The notes under the pieces are model-generated. The model searched no databases, was not told the origin of the DNA, and worked only from the letters and a program-made list of their open reading frames with translations. The position numbers and the translations under genes were made by a program. Positions 2,035 to 42,486 of a DNA stretch of 45,204 nt are shown here, piece after piece; position 1 is the stretch's first letter; each line of letters opens with the position of its first letter. The DNA is from Escherichia phage vB_EcoS_L-h 1M: sequence record NC_073086.1; one strand, written 5' to 3'.

Positions 2035-4326
2035 TTATTTCCTGTACCTGTACATAATGTCGCCTTCCGCGGCAAGCGGGAAGCCTTTCGCCCAAATAGG
2101 CAGGTCGCACATCAGCGCGCATAGCTCCTCGGTCGTGTAATCGTCAGTATCCGGCACTTCGGTGATCAGTTCATCGTGTACGGACAGTACGATCTCATAT
2201 CCCGCAGCTTCAACGCCCGGCATGGACCATGCGAGGATATCGCGACACAGCGCCTGCACGATGTTTTCCGTGAGTTTTCCGCCGTAGGTGTACTGGGATC
2301 CCCACTGGCGCGTCGTCTGATTCTCACCCTGATATTTAATGCGGGTGCTGGTGCGTTTCTTGCCGGTATCTTCGTCGATCTCGGTCGTCACTGACAGCGC
2401 AATGCCTGGATAACTCATAATACGCCCCGACGGCAACTCAATTTTCAACCACCACCCCGCGGCGTTCGGGTCGTCGCGTTCCTCGTCGAAGGTTGGGTCA
2501 TGCTTCGCCTTCGTGCGGACTATCTTGAGCGCTTTCTTACCATCCGGGCGAACGTTCGCGCCAGCCCAGTACGCTTTGCCAGGATTGCGGATTGCACACA
2601 ACACCGCGTCCTCAAGCTCGGCCCAAAAGGCTACCGTCTTCGGGTGAGCCTCGCGCCACATGCGTTTAATCGCATCACACGTAAGCCATACGTTTTTCGG
2701 CAGTATGTAAGTCGGGCGCTCGTCCTTCTTGCCCGGCTTCGGCGGTCGCTTCGCTTCGTTAATGCGGGCATATTCATAACCACGTTTCGCCGCCGCCCAA
2801 ATGTGATCGGGGAATGTGCCCTTCATCACGTCAGCCATCGCATAAAGGTCGAGGCCCAGGTTTTTAGCGAACTGCAAGAACGCAGCCACGCCGCCGCCGT
2901 AGCCCAGGCCCAACTCACACGCCTTACCAATCTGGCGTAAGTCCTTGCGGTTGGCTTTAATGTATTCCGGGTCAAGGCCAAACATCTTACCGGCAGTTTC
3001 ACAATAAATATCGCGACCGGCCCTAAACACCATGAGCGCTGTTTTCTCGCCAGCGATCCAGGCAAGGCCGCGCCCTTCCACGTTGGAGTAGTCCGCAACG
3101 ACAAACTTCTTGCCCTTCGCCGGAATAATGCACCCGCGAACGGTCGAGGCCGTTAGCTTCGATATGTCATACGCCCAGTGTGCGGTCCCGCGTAACAGGG
3201 AGTTGATGCCGTTGGTGAGCATGTGCGACCGCACCCAAAAAGATATATCGCTCTCGCCCTCGCGGCGCTTAATCTTCCCTTCGTGGTCGTCGCTATACTC
3301 GCCACGCGCCAGGTTTTGCGGCTGGAAGCCTTTACCGGCCCAGCGTAGCGTGCGCTTTGCCCCACCATACTGAAGACAACCACGGCGGCGACCATCGGCG
3401 GACAGGCCATTTACGAGCGGATTGTACTTAGTCGATGCCGTTGATGACGCTCCGAGGCGCATCTCGATAAGCACTTTGCCTTCATCGGGGAAGTCTGGAT
3501 CTTCCAGCAGGTCGTTAAGCGTGGATTTCTGCGCGTTGTGGATTGTGAACGCAGGCGCGAGGTCACGCAGCGCTGGCAGGAAGTCATTGCCGGTCAGCTT
3601 ACCGCCGAAGCGCTCCCATGCTTCTTCCTTCAATTCTTCCTTATGCGCCTGTACCGCTTTGATCGCAGCGCGCGCCAGGTCGACGTCTACATAGAAGCCG
3701 CGGTCATTAATCAACTGGTCAATAAGCAGGATTTCGTCTTCCTTCGGCGTGTTACCCCAGTCCGGTATGCGCCAATAGACTTCACGCATCGCGACAATAT
3801 CCAGCGCAGCATAGCGCAGGAATTTAGCCCACTCCTCTGGGTGCGTCTCGCGCGTGTAGCGTCGGATTTTGTAGGTCCTAGGGGTAGGCTTACAGAATCG
3901 TTTAATCAGCGCCTTGCCTGCCTTATCCTTCGCGTGCTCTGCATCAACGCCCAGCACCTGGCACTGCATATCGAGGCTACCAGGCAACGCGTGTCGGAAG
4001 GCCATAACCATGGTGTCTTCGATCTGGCACACTGGCAAGTCAATACCCCACTTTTCGCGAATAACCAGGCGGTCAAACAGGAGGCCGTTAGCCATCACGA
4101 TTTTTGCTTTCTTGCGGGATACCTGGCGGAGCGCCTTGCGCAGTTCACGCGGCATTGTAGGGGATTCGGTGCAATCCCATGTCTGTACGCGGCCCTCGTC
4201 GATGGCGTAGGTGCAGATCATAATCTCGGTTGTCGGGTGCTCCGCGTAGGCGTATGCGCCCACTTTCTTCAGGTCTACCCCGCTAAATGTCTCGGTATCG
4301 AGAAACAGGCGTTCGAAGTCTTTCAT
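2035..4326 (-). CDS. family A DNA polymerase (Pol I-like) with 3'-5' exonuclease domain
   Basis: 763 aa; exo motif 'LDTETFSG'; pol motif A 'ADYSNVEGR', motif B 'RKDLRQIGKACELGLGYGGG', motif C 'VHDELI'. Confidence 0.9.
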   Translation of the reverse strand: MKDFERLFLDTETFSGVDLKKVGAYAYAEHPTTEIMICTYAIDEGRVQTWDCTESPTMPRELRKALRQVSRKKAKIVMANGLLFDRLVIREKWGIDLPVCQIEDTMVMAFRHALPGSLDMQCQVLGVDAEHAKDKAGKALIKRFCKPTPRTYKIRRYTRETHPEEWAKFLRYAALDIVAMREVYWRIPDWGNTPKEDEILLIDQLINDRGFYVDVDLARAAIKAVQAHKEELKEEAWERFGGKLTGNDFLPALRDLAPAFTIHNAQKSTLNDLLEDPDFPDEGKVLIEMRLGASSTASTKYNPLVNGLSADGRRRGCLQYGGAKRTLRWAGKGFQPQNLARGEYSDDHEGKIKRREGESDISFWVRSHMLTNGINSLLRGTAHWAYDISKLTASTVRGCIIPAKGKKFVVADYSNVEGRGLAWIAGEKTALMVFRAGRDIYCETAGKMFGLDPEYIKANRKDLRQIGKACELGLGYGGGVAAFLQFAKNLGLDLYAMADVMKGTFPDHIWAAAKRGYEYARINEAKRPPKPGKKDERPTYILPKNVWLTCDAIKRMWREAHPKTVAFWAELEDAVLCAIRNPGKAYWAGANVRPDGKKALKIVRTKAKHDPTFDEERDDPNAAGWWLKIELPSGRIMSYPGIALSVTTEIDEDTGKKRTSTRIKYQGENQTTRQWGSQYTYGGKLTENIVQALCRDILAWSMPGVEAAGYEIVLSVHDELITEVPDTDDYTTEELCALMCDLPIWAKGFPLAAEGDIMYRYRK

Positions 4327-4551: not shown

Positions 4552-5337
4552 TTAACGGCGGCGACGTTTACGTGGTGCTTCGTCTTCGTCGTCTTCGTCC
4601 TCATCTTCGTCATCGCGTGGCTTACGACGTTTACGAGGTTTCTCATCTTCGTCGTCTTCGTCGTCATCGCGGCGCTTGGACTTTTTGGACTTGCGCGGCT
4701 TGTCGTCCTCATCATCGTCATCACGACGTTTTGACTTCTTAGCCTTGCGCGGGCTTTCGTCTTCGTCGTCGTTGTCCAGGTCTTCGTCGGAACATGAAGA
4801 CCCGCCACCTCCGAAGGCTTCGCCGTCTTCACGGAATCGCAGACCCAGCAAGCCCGCCCCGAGTCCCTTGCCGTTGGTATTGTTCCACGCCCAAATATCA
4901 AGTGACACGTTGCAATAACAACCGGAGTAGATCTCCTGGCCTTCGATCTCGTCGCCTTCTACGGTCAGACCTTGTTCAGTCTGCTTCTCGCCGAGTGACG
5001 TTTGAATGATAGGCTGTTTGAACGATTTGGCGTTGATATACAACATGCCTTCGAATTCTTCGGTAACTTCATCGCGCTCGTCGCCGTCGCGAACTGCACA
5101 TTCCTTAGAATCCTGGGCGTAGTGGCGGTCCATCCACTTATCGGCATTCTTCTCAGATTTCAGCTTGTCGGTGAGCACTGCACGCGCTGCCGCTTCCACT
5201 TTGTCCACCTGCGGATCTTCTTTATCAAGAAGAATCACGGCACGGTATGCCGGTTTTTGTCCATCCTGTTTAGGGGTATCACGTTCCCAAATTTTCAGGA
5301 AGCATACGCGCACATTTTTCAGGTTGACTTTAGCCAT
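4552..5337 (-). CDS. ssDNA-binding-like protein (DUF2815-type) with alternating acidic/basic C-terminal repeats
   Basis: N-terminus 'MAKVNLKNVRVCF'; start ATG 5335-5337 (rc) with GAGGA RBS; C-terminal (D/E)n-PRK-(K/R)n repeated 4x. Confidence 0.55.
   Translation of the reverse strand: MAKVNLKNVRVCFLKIWERDTPKQDGQKPAYRAVILLDKEDPQVDKVEAAARAVLTDKLKSEKNADKWMDRHYAQDSKECAVRDGDERDEVTEEFEGMLYINAKSFKQPIIQTSLGEKQTEQGLTVEGDEIEGQEIYSGCYCNVSLDIWAWNNTNGKGLGAGLLGLRFREDGEAFGGGGSSCSDEDLDNDDEDESPRKAKKSKRRDDDDEDDKPRKSKKSKRRDDDEDDEDEKPRKRRKPRDDEDEDEDDEDEAPRKRRRR
4560..4800. repeat. degenerate ~60-bp tandem repeats encoding charged tail of SSB-like protein
   Basis: repeated CGTCTTCGTCnTCATC...GCGnGGCTT units; protein level acidic block + PRK + basic block x4. 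Confidence 0.45.
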
Positions 5338-5427
5338 TTTCCAATTCCTCATTTTCACATGTATCGGGGTTATTGTGAGCCACCCCGTCCGGCTTGGTTG
5401 CTAATCTACTTGGTTGCGCCTGAGNGG

Positions 5428-5670
5428 TCAAGCGTTTTTATTAAAAAGATTTCGTGTCACGTAGTTGGTGGCGTTCTCGATCCAGCTTAACGGCGGGCGG
5501 TCGATGTTCTTCGCGATCCACGCCACGGCATGGTCGCTGTAACCATCGTCCAGCCATTGGGTTGGATGACGAATCATCCAGGCCACCATTAAGACGCCTT
5601 GCACGCAATGCAGGATAAAGCCCAGCGCGCCGAGCAAAAACATCAATAAGATTGCGAATACTTTATTCAT
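5428..5670 (-). CDS. small membrane protein
   Basis: 80 aa, N-terminal hydrophobic helix 'VFAILLMFLLGALGFILHCV'; AGGA RBS. Confidence 0.4.
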   Translation of the reverse strand: MNKVFAILLMFLLGALGFILHCVQGVLMVAWMIRHPTQWLDDGYSDHAVAWIAKNIDRPPLSWIENATNYVTRNLFNKNA

Positions 5671-8221: not shown

Positions 8222-8446
8222 GGTGTATCTCCGATTGGTTAAGTTTAGGTGTCGACCATTAACTTCGTCGGTGGCCTTAACATAGTGCCCGGTTGCGCGT
8301 TCTCCCTTTCGGGTAGTGGACCGGGTTATATAATCACGGTTGGGAATCCTGACACTTCGATCCGGCCCCTGCGTTGCCCCTCTCCAGTTTGCTTCCTGCA
8401 TCCTGTCGACGAGGTGAATGATAGATTGGTTGCAGATGGGTGTCAA

Positions 8447-8621: not shown

Positions 8622-8951
8622 ATGAATATCAAAGAAGCAATTGAAGTGTTATCTAATGCAATCCGCGGCGAAGCGGGTAAATCCTGGTATTACACAAANG
8701 NGGNGGATACTCTGTTATTTGAAGTGTCCAGATTATCGCGTGCTGAGAAGGAGCTTACCGCGAAGCTGGAACTACTCAATGGTACGGCAGCCAGCAAGCT
8801 GCAAAAGCACAATGAAGAAATGGAAGAANACAAAAAGCAGGTTATCCGTTTGCGCGACGAAGGGAAATCATGGGCGATGATTGCAGAGCTAACCGGAATT
8901 AATCAGAGCACCGTGCGATCCTGGGTACGCAATAATAAAACCTCTAAGTAA
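8622..8951 (+). CDS. HTH DNA-binding regulator
   Basis: C-terminal HTH 'SWAMIAELTGINQSTVRSWVRN'; first gene after TTGACA-N17-TAGTTT promoter. Confidence 0.6.
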   Translation: MNIKEAIEVLSNAIRGEAGKSWYYTXXXDTLLFEVSRLSRAEKELTAKLELLNGTAASKLQKHNEEMEEXKKQVIRLRDEGKSWAMIAELTGINQSTVRSWVRNNKTSK

Positions 8952-11489: not shown

Positions 11490-11648
11490 CATAAAATCCG
11501 GGATTGCATAATACACGGCAGCATATTGGAAATCGCGGTCGTCGCTGAACTAGGCAACCAATGCGAGTTGCAGAATGGTGGGTGGGGAATGCAGTATGCA
11601 GTTACAGCAGATAGCGATCAACTTTTTCATGCGCATGATTAATATTGG

Positions 11649-11685
11649 TTGCATTCGTGCCAGCACCCTGCTAGATTGGTTGCAC
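11649..11685 (+). promoter_or_regulatory. promoter with ATTGGTTGCA operator-like repeats
   Basis: TTGCAT - 17 bp - TAGATT (11672-11677), followed by GGTTGCAC; motif also at 11644-11653. Confidence 0.5.
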
Positions 11686-11705
11686 ACCAACAAGAGGACT
11701 GAACA

Positions 11706-12032
11706 ATGAAAAAATTAATCTGGAATTACGCAATGGCTATGGCGAAGGCACAAGAAGCGGCGGAGTTCGCCGGTGAGGGGGTGGAAGCAGTAGAAAGACT
11801 ATCGGCAGCGTGGGCCGTTGTGCGGGTGATGCGGCGGGCCATCGCCGTTATGCTTGAGCGCCGCTTCGACACGATGGAAGAGATCCAGCCACTGGCGAAC
11901 GCCATCCAGGACTACGCGCTTGCATTCTCCCGTGAGCGCCTGGCGTATCGCTTCGGGATCGGTGAGACGGCAGTGACAAACGTCGCCCGGATTAAAGCAC
12001 AGCGCGAACTATTTGCCCAGCTTGCGAAATAA
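11706..12032 (+). CDS. hypothetical early protein
   Basis: ORF preceded by TTGCAT-N17-TAGATT promoter and conserved leader 'ACCAACAAGAGGACTGAACAATG'. Confidence 0.5.
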   Translation: MKKLIWNYAMAMAKAQEAAEFAGEGVEAVERLSAAWAVVRVMRRAIAVMLERRFDTMEEIQPLANAIQDYALAFSRERLAYRFGIGETAVTNVARIKAQRELFAQLAK

Positions 12033-12040
12033 GGGCCAAA

Positions 12041-12310
12041 ATGGTCCGCAGACGAGCTAAACAGCTTTCGTGGCATATTCCACTGCATTGTATACGCATA
12101 TGGGCTAAGAATGCGACTGAGGGCGATTCTGTGTTCTGGAGCTATCGCGACGATGTGAAGCCGTTGACGCAGACACGCTACTTGCACCAGTTCGCAGCAA
12201 AACACGATTTCAGGGTGCGGACCTCCTTGCAACCAATGGGAATCCGTATTACATTACGCCGGAAGCCCGCCGTTGAGCGGGTAGGCAAACACTGGAGACT
12301 AAGCAAATGA
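12041..12310 (+). CDS. hypothetical protein
   Basis: ORF track; AAGGG RBS; stop overlaps next ATG (ATGA). Confidence 0.35.
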   Translation: MVRRRAKQLSWHIPLHCIRIWAKNATEGDSVFWSYRDDVKPLTQTRYLHQFAAKHDFRVRTSLQPMGIRITLRRKPAVERVGKHWRLSK

Positions 12311-14997: not shown

Positions 14998-15201
14998 TGC
15001 TTGACTTGCAACCAACATAGACGCCATACTGCGACCAATCAACGAGAGGAGTAGTAACTATGGCACGTAATGATATTTGGGTTTTGGCGATCTGGACCAC
15101 CGCAGCATTCATTGGCATGGTTATTTGCGAATTGCTATAACCCGCCACAATAGGGACCGTGGTATATTGTCCTCGGTCCCATAATCAGGAATGGATTAAA
15201 T

Positions 15202-20139: not shown

Positions 20140-21226
20140 TCAATATATGGCGGATCGCATGATCCGCCGTCACATCTTCACCCAGCGCCTGAGCAATGAC
20201 CAGGCGCGGAGGGTGCTGGCTATGTGGGAGAAGTTCCGGCCCGCTTTACTGGGTAAGTTGACCGAGTTACTTGATGGGAAAAAGTCCATGAGCAACAAGG
20301 CACTTACCACACTTTTAACGCAACTCGACAAGACCGTCAAAACGGAACTGCGCACCGAGTTTAAGGCACTGGCTGAAAGCCTTCAGGAGTTTGCAGACAC
20401 GGAGGCTGATTATCTCGCCGACACATTAACGGCAGCGATCCAGCCGGTGGTCGCAGTACCTGCGATCGAGGTGGTGGGTGTAGTGACCGGTGCGCAGATC
20501 GCAGCGACTGCGATGAAAAACCCGTTCCAGGGAAATACCATGATGCAATGGCCTGACTCACTTTCTGAGTGGACCAGGACGCAGATCGGTAATCAGGTGC
20601 GAGCGGGATTCATCCAGGGCAAGCCGACGATGGAAATTATCGCGGACGTGAGGCGCGCGCTAGGTGGTCGTAGTGCGCAAGCTATCTCGAGCGTTGTTAA
20701 GTCCGCAGTCAATCACTATGCGGCTACCGCCCGAGAACTAATGGTAAAAGCAAATGACGATATTCTCGAAGGTCGCCAATGGTTATCTACATTGGACACG
20801 CATACTTCTCCCATGTGCCAGCTACGCGATCGCCTGTTTTATCCGGTTGATGTTACTCCCGACACCAAAGGAAAGCGCGGCGGGAAAATGGTGGCTGGGT
20901 CACAATATGGCGCTGGTCCGGGCAAGTTGCATTATTGTTGCCGGTCTACGGAGACGTGGAAGGTTAAAGGCATGGAAGATTGGCCCAGTGGTAAGCGTCC
21001 GGCGCTGAAGGCTGACGCGGGTCGATTGCTGAGTGAGCAGGTCGACGCGCAGACTGATTTCTTCTCATGGGTGCGGCGCCAGCCGCGCCATATCCTGGAA
21101 GAATTATACGGAGTGCAACGCGCCGACCAGATTATGCGCGGCGTGAAAGTGCCGAAGATGTTTACCGATTCTGGCGAACTGATGACTATCGCACAGCTTA
21201 AAAACCGGGGGTTATGGCATGATTAA
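20123..21226 (+). CDS. head morphogenesis / minor capsid protein (Mu F / SPP1 gp7-like)
   Basis: 367 aa following portal; overall resemblance to Mu F-type proteins. Confidence 0.55.
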   Translation: MAKTINQYMADRMIRRHIFTQRLSNDQARRVLAMWEKFRPALLGKLTELLDGKKSMSNKALTTLLTQLDKTVKTELRTEFKALAESLQEFADTEADYLADTLTAAIQPVVAVPAIEVVGVVTGAQIAATAMKNPFQGNTMMQWPDSLSEWTRTQIGNQVRAGFIQGKPTMEIIADVRRALGGRSAQAISSVVKSAVNHYAATARELMVKANDDILEGRQWLSTLDTHTSPMCQLRDRLFYPVDVTPDTKGKRGGKMVAGSQYGAGPGKLHYCCRSTETWKVKGMEDWPSGKRPALKADAGRLLSEQVDAQTDFFSWVRRQPRHILEELYGVQRADQIMRGVKVPKMFTDSGELMTIAQLKNRGLWHD

Positions 21227-21548
21227 ATATGCAGCGATTGGACTGGTTATCGGTCTGGCGGTAGGATTCTGGCTAGGTGACTCCTATCGCGCTGGCGTAG
21301 TGGCGGAGGCGGCGCAAGAAGCGCAAGCCAAAGCCCAACGGCAGCAAACTAAAGTTGTGGAGCGCTCCGTGCAGGCCGAACAGGCCCGCGACGTGGAATA
21401 CCGGACTATCACGAAAGAGGTTGTTAAATATGTTACGCGCCCTAACCGCCCTGATTGTAGTTTTGATGCTGAGCGCGTGCGGATCAAGCAACGCGCCGTT
21501 GATGCCGCTAACGGAGTCGGCACTGCGACCGCCGTGCAAGTTCGATAG
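21219..21548 (+). CDS. i-spanin (Rz-like)
   Basis: N-terminal TM 'AAIGLVIGLAVGFWLG' then charged coiled region 'AQEAQAKAQRQQ'; overlaps lipoprotein ORF. Confidence 0.55.
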   Translation: MIKYAAIGLVIGLAVGFWLGDSYRAGVVAEAAQEAQAKAQRQQTKVVERSVQAEQARDVEYRTITKEVVKYVTRPNRPDCSFDAERVRIKQRAVDAANGVGTATAVQVR

Positions 21549-21660
21549 CCCGTCCGCAGACCCCGACGAGGATTTGATGATTGACGTGAAAAATATGGAA
21601 TGCGGGGCGAAGCTAAGGGCGCAGGTGCTGGAGTTGCAGCAAATAATTAAGGGGCCGTAA
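21430..21660 (+). CDS. o-spanin (Rz1-like outer-membrane lipoprotein)
   Basis: ATG 21430; signal peptide with lipobox 'VLMLSAC'; Pro-rich mature part; out-of-frame overlap with i-spanin. Confidence 0.55.
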   Translation: MLRALTALIVVLMLSACGSSNAPLMPLTESALRPPCKFDSPSADPDEDLMIDVKNMECGAKLRAQVLELQQIIKGP

Positions 21661-21672
21661 TGGCCCCTTTTT
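21651..21672. terminator. bidirectional terminator between convergent genes
   Basis: stem GGGGCC / GGCCCC, T5 downstream on + strand, A/T-rich on the other side. Confidence 0.55.
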
Positions 21673-21674
21673 CG

Positions 21675-22439
21675 TTAGCGCGGAATACCGCAAATCTCGT
21701 TGAGAGTTTTCACATCCAGCGCCACCGCCGTGGATTTTGGCTTATCCGGGTAAGGGATGAATTGCTCAACTTCAGGCCATGCCTTAATCAGCTTCTTATC
21801 GGTATTGTGCATGTCCAGCACACCGGTAACGGTAAACTTGAATGCGTCATACTTAGCACGCAACTCACGGCGGGCCTTGTCGTTACGGTCAAGGCGCTTG
21901 CAGAAGTCATGATCTGCCGGGAAATCCGCACGGCAGCGTGGCTTATAGATCGGCAGCGATTTTCCGTCCTCGTCCACTTCACACACTGAAGCCAACATAA
22001 CTGTCTCGAACCCCGGAACGATATCTCCGAGATCAGGCGAGAGCGTATTCATATATTTCTCTTCCCAGTATCCGCGATGTACGCGGTATTGGCGACCGTC
22101 ACCGCTCAAGGACAAGATGCGAACATTGCCGCCTGCGTTGATTTCAAAGGTGGCGTCGTAAACGCTGCCGATACCCTTCGGGCGATCTGTGTCATAGCGA
22201 TATGTTGCCTTGTTGGTGTATACGCTGACGTTGTACATCTGCGACTGGTCGTCGCGGATTGCCTTGATATGCTCGCGGAGCGCTGCGAACGTGCGAATGC
22301 CTTCCGGCATACAGTCCAGCGTGATTGCGTACGCCAGGTCGCGAGAGTCCATCATGATTGTTTTGGCTTCGGTAGCGATTTCGTGGTCGCGCAGGATGTT
22401 AGCCAGGATCTGATTTTTAATGTCTTTCGTCAGTCTCAT
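21675..22439 (-). CDS. hypothetical protein (opposite-strand cassette in structural module)
   Basis: 254-aa ORF antisense to surrounding late genes; shares bidirectional terminator at 21651-21672. Confidence 0.5.
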   Translation of the reverse strand: MRLTKDIKNQILANILRDHEIATEAKTIMMDSRDLAYAITLDCMPEGIRTFAALREHIKAIRDDQSQMYNVSVYTNKATYRYDTDRPKGIGSVYDATFEINAGGNVRILSLSGDGRQYRVHRGYWEEKYMNTLSPDLGDIVPGFETVMLASVCEVDEDGKSLPIYKPRCRADFPADHDFCKRLDRNDKARRELRAKYDAFKFTVTGVLDMHNTDKKLIKAWPEVEQFIPYPDKPKSTAVALDVKTLNEICGIPR

Positions 22440-22478
22440 TTTTATGTCCTCATTTTAGGGGCTTTCGCCACGATTGGT

Positions 22479-22793
22479 TTAGTTGAATTTGATGTTGCCA
22501 CCGGTGGAAGTTAAGCGGGCACATACAGCTTCAACGGCATCGACGCACATGAAATCGTTAAAGGCTTCGACCAGGGCGTTTATGAAAGATGCCGGAACCA
22601 GGCCGCAAGCCGGATTATCGAATATCGCGGAGTTGATCGCCGCTTTTGCCGCTTCAGAAGCATTCATGCTCTGGCACAGATTCAGCGCTTCCGCGTTACG
22701 CATTGCGTGAAAGGTAAAGGTATTAGCTACGGTAGCTTTATTGAAACGGGCCATTGCGGCGTCTACTGGAGTTGCTACGGTCATGTTAGTCAT
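22479..22793 (-). CDS. hypothetical protein (first gene of opposite-strand cassette)
   Basis: ATG 22791-22793 (rc) with AAGGAAG RBS; preceded by TTGCAA-N18-TATATT promoter carrying the ATTGGTTGCAC motif twice. Confidence 0.45.
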   Translation of the reverse strand: MTNMTVATPVDAAMARFNKATVANTFTFHAMRNAEALNLCQSMNASEAAKAAINSAIFDNPACGLVPASFINALVEAFNDFMCVDAVEAVCARLTSTGGNIKFN

Positions 22794-22828
22794 TTTGTCT
22801 TCCTTCATATCTCTGTTGGTGTGCAACC

Positions 22829-22858
22829 AATATAGTGCAACCAATACGCGGATTGCAA
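22829..22858 (-). promoter_or_regulatory. leftward promoter of opposite-strand cassette
   Basis: minus strand TTGCAA - 18 bp - TATATT then GGTTGCACACCAACAGAG leader; ATTGGTTGCAC twice. Confidence 0.45.
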
Positions 22859-22865
22859 GCGAATT

Positions 22866-22893
22866 TTGCGATTATTTTTATCGCTGATAATAT
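22866..22893 (+). promoter_or_regulatory. promoter candidate for scaffold/capsid operon
   Basis: TTGCGA - 16 bp - TAATAT, ~55 bp upstream of scaffold ATG. Confidence 0.3.
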
Positions 22894-22947
22894 TAAAGCG
22901 TGAAGTCGAGCGGGTGGCCTGCTCTGCCATAATCCCAGGGGGATAGC

Positions 22948-28409: not shown

Positions 28410-29519
28410 CACCGCGTCATGCTTCAGCAGTTACCGCAGCTAACTGGGGCGTTCGGCGGACTGGGTAACACGCTGCGTTTTGTTGCGGGCTTCCTCGGCC
28501 CAGTAGGGGTCGGCCTTGCCGCCGTAACGGCAACGTTAGGCGTGGGCGTGGCAATTACGTCCCNCNNGGAGAACNANANCCCCCCGCTTAACAAGACGCT
28601 GGCACTTTCCGGTAACATTTCCGGCCTGACGGCAAACCAGATCCTGGTGCTATCTGAGAACGCCGAGCGCATGGGCGGGTCGTTCCGCAAGACGCGTGAC
28701 ACAATCCAGGCGCTGGCGGCGGCGGGTGTGAAAGCGGGTGGTGACTTCGGCGCACTGGCGAAAGTGGTGAATGACTTTGCGAAGGTGTCCAGCATGGCAG
28801 ATCAGGCAGCGGGCATCACGCTCAAGGCGGACGTCGCGCAAATTAAAACGGCTAATACTGTGCTGGACACATTCGCGCAGAAATCCGAGAACACAGAACA
28901 GAAAGTAAAGAAATTAAACGACACACTCGGCAAGTCGAAAAAGGTTACTGGCGACGCCGCGGGCGGAATGGAAAAGTTAGCGACTGAATCGCAGCGCGCC
29001 GCCGACGGCATGACGAAACAGGAGCGACTAGCCAGCCGATTAGGCATGTCGACCAAAAACCTGGGATTTGCTTCACGGAACGCGGCATTCCAGTTACAGG
29101 ATATTGCGGTAACGCTTGAGATGGGTATGCCGGTGCACCGCGTCATGCTTCAGCAGTTACCACAGCTAACCGGCGCATTCGGCGGATTAGGTAACACGCT
29201 GCGTTATGTTGCGGGCTTCCTCGGCCCAGTAGGGATCGGACTTGCGGCAGTAACGGCGACATTAGGCGTGGGCGTGGCAATCACGTCACGGGCAGAGAAC
29301 CAGGTAGCCGCGCTTAATAAGACGCTGGCGCTGTCCGGTAATATTTCAGGCCTCACAGCTAACCAGATCCTTGTGCTGTCCGAGAACGCTGAGCGCATGG
29401 GCGGGTCATTTCGCAAGACGCGTGACACAATCCAGGCGCTGGCGGCGGCGGGTGTGAAAGCGGGTGGTGACTTCGGCGCATTGGCTAAGGTAGTTAATGA
29501 CTTTGCGAAGGTGTCCAGC
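28068..29519 (+). repeat. 726-bp in-frame tandem duplication at 5' end of tape measure gene
   Basis: 28068-28793 vs 28794-29519, both begin ATGGCAGATCA; ~90% identical, mostly synonymous. Confidence 0.75.
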
Positions 29520-31436
29520 CAGCCGATCGAGGATGTGGTGGCGGCGGTGGCGAAGCTGTCAACCGACCCCGTTGGCGGACTGCGTGCGCTGGCGGATAAG
29601 TATCACGTCGTAAACGAAGCGCAGATCCAGCAGGTACAGTCGCTCGTTGATGCGGGTCGTGAGACAGACGCAGTTGCGTTGGCTAACAAAACAGCCGCTG
29701 CGTCGTTCACCAGTATGACCAATGAGATCAAGGCGAACATGGGTACGCTTGAGCGATCTATGAACGTCGTCACATCGGCAGCCAAATCAATGTGGGATGC
29801 CATCCTGGATGTGGGCCGCGCGCAGTCCTCCAATGAGTCCGAGATGAAAGCGCGCGAATCACTACAGCGCATGACCACGGCTTACTATGCCGAGATGAAA
29901 GCGGTAAACGCTGCCGGTGGGGTAATGACTGAAGCGCAGAAAGCACGTATTAACATGCTTTACAGCGAACTGGTCGCCCAGGAAAAAGTGGTGGCGTCGC
30001 TCACCCTGCGTAACCGTGCTGAGCGAGACAACGCCCGCGCCGCAGACGAATCCGCAAAGGCGAACGAGGAGGCCAACCGCACTGCCCGTGACCGCGCCGC
30101 GTTCGAGAAGGAATACGCCACCAACGCTAAGAAGCGCGCCGACGAGATCGCCCGCCTCAATTTGCTGAATAAGCGCGGCGTTATTGATGAGAAAGAACTA
30201 GCCGAGGCGGTGAAGCAGGTAAACGAGCGGTACAAAGACCCAGCCCCGAAAAAGGCCGCGGCTGTTCGCGTGGATGCCGGTATGAAAATGCTGGAAGTCG
30301 CACGGAGCGAACTGGCCCAGCTTCGAGAATCCGGCAAGCAGATCGAAGCCAACGCGTCTACGCAGACCCGCACGCAACGCGCTCAAGCGGCCTTAAACAA
30401 GCTGATCGCCGACAATGAGCAGTTAATCGCTGCGAGCAAAGAAAGAGCGCTAACGGCAGCAGAAAAGCAGCAATTAGTCGAGTTCGGGCGCGTGAAGGAA
30501 GTCCGCGAGCAGATCGTCGAAGAAGCCAAATTGCTGGATGCGAAAGAGCAGCAGGTTAAGGCGCACGCGCAGATCGATGCCTTCGTTAAGAACCAGAACG
30601 CCGAACTAAAAGCCACCGCCGCGGGGTATGCGCTTTCCACTCGCGAAGCGGCAAACCTGCGCGAAGAATTGCAGCTAATTGACCGCCTGAAGCGGGTTGG
30701 CGCTAACGATACCGATATTGACAAGGCGGTGTCTAAGCTGCGAGAAGTGCAGGAAGCACAGACCGGCGCTAACGCCTCGTTATGGGATGGATTCAGTCGC
30801 GGGCTTAAGGATAGCGTGGATGAAATGGGTAACGGATATACGCAGATGGCGTCGCTCACGAAATTTACATTCAGCGCTATGCAGGACACGATGAACGAGT
30901 TTTTCGAGACTGGTAAGCTGAACGCAAAGGATATGGTTAAGTCCATCCTGAGCGAATTAATCAAGCTGGCTACCTCGCAGGCGTTCAAGTCCATCGTTAG
31001 CGCTTTCGGTGGTGACGGCGGCAAAAACGGATTGTTCGGCGCTATCTTCTCTGGCCTCACTAAGAATGCGGACGGCGGAGCGTACACAGGCGGCAATCTC
31101 GCGGCCTATTCGGGGAAAGTGGTAAGCCAGCCTACCTTTTTCAGTTATGGCGTCCAGGCGTTCGCTAAGGGCGCTGGGTTGATGGGTGAGGCTGGACCCG
31201 AGGCCATCATGCCACTGAAGCGCGGGCCGGACGGGAAACTGGGCGTTGCCGCGTCTGGCGCAGGCGGTGGTATGGTCGTGACGACTAACGTTTACACGGG
31301 GACCGGTAAGACGGACACCAGTGTTAGCGGGCCAGACCCACGTACCGCGCAGGCGTTCGGCAAGCAAATCACCGAGGCGGTGAAGTCCGAGATCGTGAAA
31401 GCGACTAAACCAGGTGGTGTACTTTACAAACGATGA
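28419..31436 (+). CDS. tail tape measure protein
   Basis: 1005 aa, Ala-rich and coiled-coil-like; between chaperone and tail-tip genes; may start at 28794 or 28068. Confidence 0.8.
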   Translation: MLQQLPQLTGAFGGLGNTLRFVAGFLGPVGVGLAAVTATLGVGVAITSXXENXXPPLNKTLALSGNISGLTANQILVLSENAERMGGSFRKTRDTIQALAAAGVKAGGDFGALAKVVNDFAKVSSMADQAAGITLKADVAQIKTANTVLDTFAQKSENTEQKVKKLNDTLGKSKKVTGDAAGGMEKLATESQRAADGMTKQERLASRLGMSTKNLGFASRNAAFQLQDIAVTLEMGMPVHRVMLQQLPQLTGAFGGLGNTLRYVAGFLGPVGIGLAAVTATLGVGVAITSRAENQVAALNKTLALSGNISGLTANQILVLSENAERMGGSFRKTRDTIQALAAAGVKAGGDFGALAKVVNDFAKVSSQPIEDVVAAVAKLSTDPVGGLRALADKYHVVNEAQIQQVQSLVDAGRETDAVALANKTAAASFTSMTNEIKANMGTLERSMNVVTSAAKSMWDAILDVGRAQSSNESEMKARESLQRMTTAYYAEMKAVNAAGGVMTEAQKARINMLYSELVAQEKVVASLTLRNRAERDNARAADESAKANEEANRTARDRAAFEKEYATNAKKRADEIARLNLLNKRGVIDEKELAEAVKQVNERYKDPAPKKAAAVRVDAGMKMLEVARSELAQLRESGKQIEANASTQTRTQRAQAALNKLIADNEQLIAASKERALTAAEKQQLVEFGRVKEVREQIVEEAKLLDAKEQQVKAHAQIDAFVKNQNAELKATAAGYALSTREAANLREELQLIDRLKRVGANDTDIDKAVSKLREVQEAQTGANASLWDGFSRGLKDSVDEMGNGYTQMASLTKFTFSAMQDTMNEFFETGKLNAKDMVKSILSELIKLATSQAFKSIVSAFGGDGGKNGLFGAIFSGLTKNADGGAYTGGNLAAYSGKVVSQPTFFSYGVQAFAKGAGLMGEAGPEAIMPLKRGPDGKLGVAASGAGGGMVVTTNVYTGTGKTDTSVSGPDPRTAQAFGKQITEAVKSEIVKATKPGGVLYKR

Positions 31437-41806: not shown

Positions 41807-42265
41807 AGTGAATTTTGCAACGTTTATTGCGTAAATTTTCGGGACCAAATCACCACACGCCCGACGAATTGCCGCGATGTTCTTCTCGCAATCTTCAATG
41901 ATGACCAGTTCCGACACGTCCGCATAGCAGACCATTTTGAACACGGCGCACGCCTTAAACTCTGGCGGCGGGGTGTCGTCCAGCATGTGGCGCATAAACA
42001 ACCGGCCTACCGGGAAGACCTCCAATTGCTCGGCGGTGGTGTCCCAGCATTCTCGCTGCCGGTTGGTCAGATACGCGATCTCGAAGCCTCGCTCTTTGTA
42101 CATGCGCAGCAACGGCAGCATATCCATATTCAGGTCTTCGCGTACGTGCGCCTTGTGCCACTTCGCCCAAAAGGTGGATTTAGTTTTTATACCAGGCACC
42201 AGGTCGGCGCGCGCATCGCTTGAACCGTTAATAACTCCATCCAAATCGCAAATCAGTAATTTCAT
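41795..42265 (-). CDS. HAD-superfamily phosphatase (nucleotidase-like)
   Basis: N-terminal 'MKLLICDLDGVI' HAD motif I. Confidence 0.6.
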   Translation of the reverse strand: MKLLICDLDGVINGSSDARADLVPGIKTKSTFWAKWHKAHVREDLNMDMLPLLRMYKERGFEIAYLTNRQRECWDTTAEQLEVFPVGRLFMRHMLDDTPPPEFKACAVFKMVCYADVSELVIIEDCEKNIAAIRRACGDLVPKIYAINVAKFTCNQ

Positions 42266-42486
42266 TTTAGGCTCTCAATAAGGGTGGCTCGGGCGCTACG
42301 CGCGGTGTAAGAGTTGCACACGAAATGACAACGTCGGGTCATGACAAGCCAACCGGTGAGGTCAAGGCCCAGGATGTATTCGGGGCGAGACGCGCGCACC
42401 ACACGATCGCGGCGTGGGTCGATGTTATAGTCTTTTTGCATTTGGTCTACGACCGCGTGGTCGCGGTCAACGATTAAGATATTCAC
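42262..42486 (-). CDS. hypothetical protein
   Basis: ORF track, GTG start, overlaps neighbours. Confidence 0.3.
   Translation of the reverse strand: MNILIVDRDHAVVDQMQKDYNIDPRRDRVVRASRPEYILGLDLTGWLVMTRRCHFVCNSYTARSARATLIESLK

Follow-up and report, generated by a model that had tools for sequence, protein, structure and literature searches.

A leftward cargo slot between the spanin and scaffold genes of Dhillonviruses carries nmad5 and an optional small gene

The genome of Escherichia phage vB_EcoS_L-h 1M (NC_073086.1; 45,204 nt, hereafter the window, meaning this whole stretch of DNA) carries two leftward genes, at 21675-22439 (254 aa) and 22479-22793 (104 aa), between its spanin genes and its scaffold gene. 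An initial annotation had proposed a two-gene cassette here, and both reading frames were confirmed at these positions on the minus strand. Comparison with other phages shows, at the sequence level, that the cassette is one state of a cargo slot with a fixed frame, made of a conserved, predicted sigma-70-like promoter with two copies of the motif ATTGGTTGCAC and of a terminator shared with the spanin genes, within which the cargo varies. The 254-aa product belongs to the Nmad5 family and is encoded by nmad5, a gene in which a K216E change allows escape from Tmn defense. We consider it probable that the cassette is a self-contained leftward unit in a Dhillonvirus cargo slot, and that its Nmad5 protein is non-structural and possibly interacts with Tmn. 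The proposed architecture is right but largely known: nmad5 and its link to defense have already been published.

The cargo slot and its frame

The window is a Dhillonvirus genome, with Escherichia phage vB_EcoS_011D5 as its best match (~93% identity). The sequence of 2.5 kb around the cassette has matches in 157 phage records, nearly all of them Escherichia phages of the genus Dhillonvirus. Approximate counts in phage records were 157 for the scaffold gene (at least 90% identity), 146 for full-length nmad5, 59 for the small gene and 16 for a clamp-like gene.

Five cargo states were found within the genus. In the window and about 59 records, the promoter is followed by the small gene, nmad5 and the terminator. 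The phages KS_S9, SM_S22 and WFI have nmad5 alone between promoter and terminator, phage 101114BS4 has nmad5 followed by a beta-clamp-like gene, and Sodalis phage SO-1 has the clamp-like gene alone. The fifth state comprises remnants: Teewinot keeps 38 nmad5 codons, and a metagenome contig encodes an 87-aa product in which the small gene and nmad5 are fused. The cassette promoter sequence directly precedes nmad5 in KS_S9, SM_S22 and Teewinot, and it is conserved genus-wide upstream of whichever cargo occupies the slot. In outgroups with homologous head modules (a Septimatrevirus, Morganella phage IME1369_01 and Klebsiella phage KLB16), the scaffold gene comes straight after a MuF-like gene, and neither spanins nor a reverse gene intervene. 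The comparison thus bears out the suggestion that the cassette is an indel among relatives. The slot would be an acquisition of the Dhillonvirus lineage, with the MuF-like head gene and spanins on one side and the scaffold gene on the other.

The SO-1 locus is the equivalent slot with other contents. Its gene gp07, recorded in GenBank as a "possible moron gene product", is oriented leftward between the same predicted promoter, with two ATTGGTTGCAC copies, and the same terminator, but its product is an unrelated protein of 172 aa that is similar to the beta subunit of DNA polymerase III, and the slot holds neither nmad5 nor the small gene.

In lambdoid phages, the morons described by Hendrix and colleagues are extra genes that bring a promoter and a terminator of their own, sit between genes that are neighbors in relatives and are present in some genomes only; classical examples are active in repressed prophages and frequently have a deviating base composition. 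The slot is moron-like in its position between genes adjacent in relatives and in its variable presence, and its predicted promoter and hairpin terminator are conserved across cargo types. Unlike classical morons, it belongs to a virulent phage. Its base composition is mixed: nmad5 has the composition of the genome (G+C content at third codon positions, GC3, of 0.64 for both; 0.59-0.68 in neighboring genes), with the small gene alone lying lower, at 0.54. Neither an integrase nor a repressor is among the 65 annotated features of the window record, and the genus is treated as lytic in the literature (PMC11846954; BASEL study). Of the moron architecture first claimed, the independently framed accessory unit and cargo slot stand; the strict term does not apply because the phage is virulent, and "moron-like cargo slot" is the accurate one.

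The features of the cassette are as follows.

21649-21669, both strands: hairpin, predicted intrinsic terminator for rightward transcription of the spanin genes and for leftward transcription of the converging nmad5 unit
21675-22439, minus strand: nmad5, encoding a 254-aa Nmad5-family protein (PF18757, phrog_1965) with K216 within TxxKLxxxWPE
22447-22451, minus strand: nmad5 ribosome-binding site GAGGA, 7 nt before the ATG, as read from the sequence
22479-22793, minus strand: small gene, 104 aa (phrog_24635), an optional insertion between promoter and nmad5
22799-22805, minus strand: small-gene ribosome-binding site AAGGAAG, as read from the sequence, with AAGGA 7 nt before the ATG at 22793
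22821-22831, minus strand: proximal ATTGGTTGCAC copy, overlapping the end of the -10 hexamer and the predicted start of transcription
22829-22858, minus strand: predicted sigma-70-type leftward promoter, with -35 TTGCAA (22858-22853), an 18-nt spacer and -10 TATATT (22834-22829)
22835-22845, minus strand: distal ATTGGTTGCAC copy, within the promoter spacer and abutting the -10 hexamer
22885-22893, plus strand: candidate rightward extended -10 promoter TGaTAATAT, as read from the sequence and below the promoter-scan threshold

To the left, the cassette is bordered by Rz-like spanin genes (phrog_2536 and phrog_5672), and to the right by the head scaffolding protein gene (phrog_206). The bidirectional terminator of the initial annotation was recovered as the hairpin at 21649-21669, with a terminator-like call on each strand. 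Its G+C-rich stem of 8-9 bp has folding energies of -18.2 and -17.1 kcal/mol (z about -3.2 and -3.1), well beyond shuffled controls. The rightward T-tract, TTTTTCG, is good and the leftward one, TTAATTATTT, is weaker. The hairpin is kept in SO-1, where the outer A-U pair is replaced by G-C, and it is annotated as a terminator in phage WFI.

At the other end of the cassette, the proximal ATTGGTTGCAC copy is kept in KS_S9, Teewinot, SM_S22, WFI and SO-1, and continues into the palindrome TTGGT-TGCAC-ACCAA. This leader hairpin was considered as a stable RNA structure and rejected (z -0.3). The small gene most plausibly starts at the ATG at 22793, judging from the ribosome-binding site; the ATG at 22808 of the deposited annotation has no Shine-Dalgarno sequence. 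The GAGGAC leader of nmad5 is also found in phages that have no small gene. With these signals, the unit would have transcription of its own, separate from that of the rightward packaging and head operon, whose scaffold and capsid genes could have their transcription restarted past the terminator by the candidate promoter at 22885-22893. The cassette products would act inside the infected cell and not in the virion.

The initial annotation had assigned the leftward promoter the same element as the early promoters. The conserved predicted promoter and its element stand, with two exact ATTGGTTGCAC copies, but the motif does not mark early genes. Copies with at most one mismatch number 10 in the window against 0.87 expected, and none of 100 shuffles reached 10. 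The core TTGGTTGCA is intergenic in 10 of 11 copies, in a genome of which intergenic DNA makes up 9.6%. Pairs of the motif, 13-31 bp apart, lie 20-55 bp before the start codons at gp17, the cassette, gp57 and gp62, and the layout TTGCAA-N7-RTTGGTTGCAC-TATATT is common to the promoters of the cassette and gp57 (41784). Single or inverted copies lie upstream of gp14, gp18 and gp26; the gp18 unit (motif at 12228) continues into lysis genes and the gp26 unit (motif at 15007) into phosphoesterase, terminase and head genes. Because the motif also fronts units leading into lysis, terminase and head genes, it does not fix early timing. WFI, the phage used by the BASEL study to root its Dhillonvirus tree, carries the motif at corresponding positions. 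Judging from this distribution, ATTGGTTGCAC is a genus-wide promoter-associated element, and it is positioned like an operator where it overlaps a spacer, a -10 hexamer or a start site.

Several observations elsewhere in the genome touch on this motif. The product of gp14 (8622-8951, plus strand) is annotated as "DNA recombination nuclease inhibitor" yet matches HTH_23 and Sigma70_r4_2 (E about 1e-6 to 1e-7), and a ATTGGTTGCAC element lies upstream of its own gene, at 8425; more speculatively, gp14 is a candidate regulator binding these elements. Two tiny annotated genes, gp36 (22805-22930, minus strand; 41 aa; noted "no significant similarity found") and gp16 (11596-11709, plus strand; 37 aa), each overlie a conserved promoter region with a ATTGGTTGCAC pair and are probably not genes. 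At ~15001-15140 (plus strand), past the gp25 terminator, a promoter-like TTGACT ... CATACT is overlapped by an inverted motif copy, TTGCAACCAAC, which is followed by a ribosome-binding site (GAGGAG) and a hydrophobic open reading frame (ORF) of 26 codons that the record does not annotate, MARNDIWVLAIWTTAAFIGMVICELL, upstream of the phosphoesterase and terminase genes.

The window and the record of 011D5 (NC_073085) have an equal length of 45,204 bp and differ at 3,173 positions, none of which lies within 21220-22834, so that 011D5 has exactly the same spanin genes, the same two cassette genes and the same proximal promoter element. Blocks of perfect identity between the two records are often bounded by gene borders, as for 21220-22834 and for 28794-31436, which is exactly the tape-measure gene. 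They alternate with blocks that are 7-11% diverged, and 57-72% of positions differ in a stretch at 27-29 kb. The window sequence also contains 78 N positions, which are clustered. This pattern of identity looks like that of a mosaic or reconstructed sequence.

Nmad5 and its link to Tmn

The initial annotation had recognized a family for neither protein. This is wrong for the 254-aa protein, which is a full-length member of PF18757 (Nmad5, "Nucleotide modification associated domain 5"; E 1.6e-60) and also matches phrog_1965. It scores 205.2 bits against a cut-off of 27, with residues 1-253 on profile positions 1-206 of 206. Full-length orthologues occupy this position in 146 phage records, and those of Dhillonviruses are 84-100% identical. 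All elements of the family signature are present: the N-terminal MRLT, a central GG/G pair, TxxKLxxxWPE and the C-terminal LNxxCGxP. In an alignment of 60 diverse members, R2, G104, G113, T213, L217, W221, P222, P229, L246, N247, G251 and P253, all found in the window protein, are each conserved in at least 90%, and the residues conserved in at least 70% are mostly hydrophobic, glycine or proline, plus R2, N14, T213, E223, T237 and N247. The alignment holds no conserved His, Cys, Asp, Ser or Lys suggestive of catalysis. Nmad5 has no relative among solved structures: in PDB chains, neither the sequence nor the family profile had a meaningful match. No enzyme-like fold was found. In the window protein, K216 lies within TDKKLIKAWPE; position 216 holds K or R in 70% of these 60 proteins and an acidic residue in none.

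The gene has been studied in the Dhillonviruses SM_A8 and SM_S22 (Yamashita et al., 2025, Commun Biol; PMC11846954). Mutants that escape Tmn carry Nmad5 K216E in SM_A8, given as K296E in SM_S22; reversion of the mutation restores sensitivity to Tmn and its introduction confers resistance (PMC11846954). Deletion of nmad5 is viable and gives no escape, and attempts to clone the gene failed, apparently through toxicity (PMC11846954). In the same work, Nmad5 is termed a DNA modification enzyme and the SM_A8 protein is described as N-terminally truncated (PMC11846954). Both phages have the nmad5 orthologue in the equivalent slot beside the scaffolding gene, at 254 aa and with K216 at the equal position. 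The structure of the cassette and the small upstream gene were not described there (PMC11846954), and the family as analyzed here is without enzyme-like features. The initial annotation had considered the cassette a plausible site for a defense, exclusion or anti-defense function: the link of nmad5 to Tmn escape speaks for this, but wild-type Nmad5 does not protect against Tmn.

The two numberings of the escape mutation can be reconciled. The annotated nmad5 coding sequence of SM_S22 (PP627283, 2506-3510) encodes 334 aa, with a start 240 nt (80 codons) upstream of the conserved MRLT, and this 80-codon extension crosses the promoter. The gap between K296E and K216E, together with the "N-terminal truncation" of SM_A8, is probably an annotation artefact of over-extension in SM_S22.

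According to a 2026 bioRxiv preprint, Tmn is activated by direct binding of T2 RIIB, an early replisome-associated protein, and binding is separable from activation (PMC13001434). T2 RIIB is like Nmad5 in a genetic sense only, as an early non-essential protein in which a single residue change abolishes Tmn defense (PMC13001434), and the two are unrelated in sequence and in fold. Nonsense mutants of RIIB evade Tmn but the nmad5 deletion mutant fails to; Nmad5 is therefore not a simple trigger.

A profile search of 1.84 billion representative proteins returned 839 Nmad5 clusters (50% identity, E up to 0.001), most of them of ~200 aa. Homologues elsewhere lie in replication modules or early operons, in widely varying contexts. 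In the Stx and HK542 lambdoid phages, the homologue comes directly after N in the pL operon, and its surroundings hold no modification genes. Within replication modules, Nmad5 adjoins a DUF2800 nuclease, an Enc34-type single-stranded DNA (ssDNA)-binding protein, PolA, a helicase, methylases or ThyX. The replication module of the window (PolA, Enc34-type ssDNA-binding protein, DUF2800) resembles that of contig L011, which has Nmad5 at its head. The Nmad5 proteins of the Yuaviruses M6 and SN1 share the family, but tblastn aligns them mainly over the C-terminal third, at 36-40% identity, and the Dhillonvirus protein is ~50 aa longer, with insertions in the central region. The Yuavirus genes are embedded among hypermodification enzymes; none such is annotated in the window genome, where the neighbors of nmad5 are spanin and scaffold genes.

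Two further arrangements were observed in metagenomes. Contig SRR29836460_2224 (45.8 kb), from an unrelated phage, carries a 201-aa Nmad5 (5001-5606) as a lone opposite-strand gene in a head/tail structural operon, which suggests that the family repeatedly lands as a lone reverse gene in structural operons; our scan detected neither a promoter nor a terminator at this reverse-strand island. Contigs L018 and L019 (3001-3900) carry a 299-aa Nmad5 variant, whose match is limited to the first ~155 residues and which abuts a MuF-like gene without spanin genes in between. This arrangement may be a slot deletion or rearrangement, or an assembly artefact.

The small protein

The 104-aa protein matches phrog_24635, a family without annotated function, at E 1e-67 (residues 1-104 on profile positions 6-109 of 109). 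It had no match in Pfam, PADLOC, NCBIfam or PDB, the last searched with the sequence and also with the family profile against PDB chains; a weak NCBIfam sigma-factor match (E 0.069) was disregarded. The protein is mildly acidic (pI 5.1) and predicted to be all-helical, and its homologues share an invariant block, FDNPACGLVP. Its AF2 model (pLDDT 50) was too poor for a structure search. A zinc or metal site formed by H29, C63, C83 and C91 was considered and dropped, as C83 is Val in the Pantoea and Agtrevirus homologues.

The small gene is found in 70 phage records, 59 of them at at least 90% identity, and in ~38% of Dhillonvirus records. It is absent from KS_S9, SM_S22 and WFI, and in comparison with phages that lack it, it resembles a ~350-bp insertion between the promoter and the nmad5 ribosome-binding site. 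Homologues with 59-75% identity lie in the early regions of Pantoea phage AAM37 and of Agtrevirus and related large (~150 kb) Escherichia phages. A further homologue, 75% identical, lies downstream of a DNA ligase in the early region of phage metagenome contig SRR23967305_48921 (344-5309), together with adenylosuccinate-synthetase-like and HD phosphohydrolase genes; this pair is typical of phages with 2-aminoadenine genomes. None of these homologues adjoins an Nmad5 gene. Since the Tmn-sensitive phages SM_A8 and SM_A2 carry the small gene, its product does not counter Tmn. A role as a mobile accessory or anti-defense gene is plausible.

Another small Dhillonvirus protein, the 74-aa Ksap1, directly activates KpAvs2; it is encoded between methyltransferase and phosphatase genes, nearly every Dhillonvirus has kept it, and its homologues are confined to the genus (PMC11564622). 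We rejected the identification of the small protein as Ksap1, as it has 104 aa, another location, a presence in ~38% of records and homologues in Pantoea and Agtrevirus phages. In the window, gp59 (42262-42486, minus strand) is a 74-aa ORF between methyltransferase-region genes and the HAD phosphatase-like gp58, and its length and position alone make it a candidate Ksap1 counterpart.

Possible functions of the cassette

A role of the cassette genes in head assembly or lysis has their position between spanin and scaffold genes in its favor and nothing else. They lie on the opposite strand, with their own predicted promoter and terminator; phages deleted for nmad5 are viable, Teewinot lacks the cassette and SO-1 has a clamp-like gene in its place, the outgroup head modules have no gene here, and homologues are found in early or replication regions. 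The protein table of the EE09 lysate also omits CDS31-33, which lie between the head proteins and the spanin and MuF proteins and are the expected place of nmad5, which is weak negative evidence with the numbering assumed. We therefore find a structural or assembly function, named in the initial annotation as what would speak against its reading, extremely improbable.

The published name of Nmad5 implies another reading, in which the protein serves DNA base modification, either as the enzyme or as a cofactor that the enzyme requires, and Tmn senses, or is evaded through, the modification state of phage DNA. PMC11846954 calls it a DNA modification enzyme, the Yuavirus SN1 gene lies among aGPT-Pplase1/2, a kinase, a radical SAM enzyme, a PLP enzyme and a hydroxymethylase, Nmad5 comes just after DNA methyltransferases or a ThyX-like gene in some contigs, and the window genome has a gene annotated as C5 DNA methyltransferase, elsewhere. 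However, hypermodification partner genes are not annotated in the window genome, the Stx/HK542 homologue follows N with no modification genes nearby, and Nmad5 has neither conserved catalytic-type residues nor an enzyme-like fold. A simple loss of modification is also hard to square with the Tmn genetics, in which a missense mutation escapes and the nmad5 deletion leaves sensitivity unchanged. We thus judge this reading improbable. The label "DNA modification enzyme" is unproven, having been drawn from gene neighborhood alone, and we infer that a non-catalytic role in replication or host takeover is more likely than an enzymatic one.

Alternatively, one or both products could be dedicated anti-defense or superinfection-exclusion factors, the small protein acting for instance as an inhibitor of a host immune system and Nmad5 as a decoy. 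In favor of this, the slot varies between phages, and its genes are short, can be dispensed with and exchange fast; the 104-aa protein is small and mildly acidic and moves between unrelated phages, where its gene lies in early regions; the lambdoid Nmad5 homologue lies at an accessory-gene position right after N; and the nmad5 genotype alters the outcome with Tmn. Yet neither protein matches PADLOC-DB models at E up to 1, the small-gene carriers SM_A8 and SM_A2 are still sensitive to Tmn and no phenotype is known for the small protein, and wild-type Nmad5 gives no protection against Tmn, its deletion having no reported effect on Tmn sensitivity. We hold such a dedicated role to be possible, though doubtful.

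In our preferred reading, the cassette is a self-contained leftward unit whose Nmad5 would be a non-catalytic protein acting during replication or host takeover and not an enzyme that modifies bases, and whose conserved C-terminal surface (TxxKLxxxWPE ... LNxxCGxP), holding K216, may be an interaction surface; we hold these two points on Nmad5 with lower confidence. As the nmad5 deletion gives no escape, Nmad5 is not the sole trigger of Tmn. By analogy with RIIB, the K216E protein may engage Tmn, or its true trigger, non-productively. Several points weigh against this reading. The promoter match alone is at chance level (2 sites found against 3.5 expected in 3.5 kb), and we found no Dhillonvirus transcriptome study in the literature, so that promoter, timing and leftward termination are predicted. 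With a presence in ~93% of records and a genome-like GC3, nmad5 is nearly core and thus no recent moron. The missing catalytic signature is negative evidence, and non-productive engagement by K216E is a hypothesis. The Nmad5 family takes its name from an association with base-modification genes; its place in the Yuavirus thymidine-hypermodification cluster is a real association, so an accessory role in DNA modification is possible, and DNA methylases or ThyX lie near Nmad5 in some contigs.

A bolder version, which we offer tentatively and regard as rather unlikely in full, would see in Nmad5 a widespread, structurally novel non-catalytic protein of the replisome or of host takeover, whose conserved C-terminal surface is read by membrane or NTPase immune sensors such as Tmn, with K216E as a non-activating ligand that blocks sensing. 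The slot would then be a promoter-terminator landing pad, in which replication-linked genes (for Nmad5, the clamp-like protein and the 104-aa protein) are swapped under defense pressure and are co-regulated through ATTGGTTGCAC as an operator, possibly by gp14.

The gene nmad5 is among the few phage genes known to decide the outcome of Tmn, with the oddity that a missense mutation escapes and a deletion does not. What is sharpened here is its setting in an exchangeable promoter-terminator slot, the non-catalytic appearance of the protein, and the N-terminal difference between its published forms as a probable annotation artefact. For the engineering of Dhillonviruses, the slot represents a natural, dispensable and, as predicted, self-expressing insertion site.

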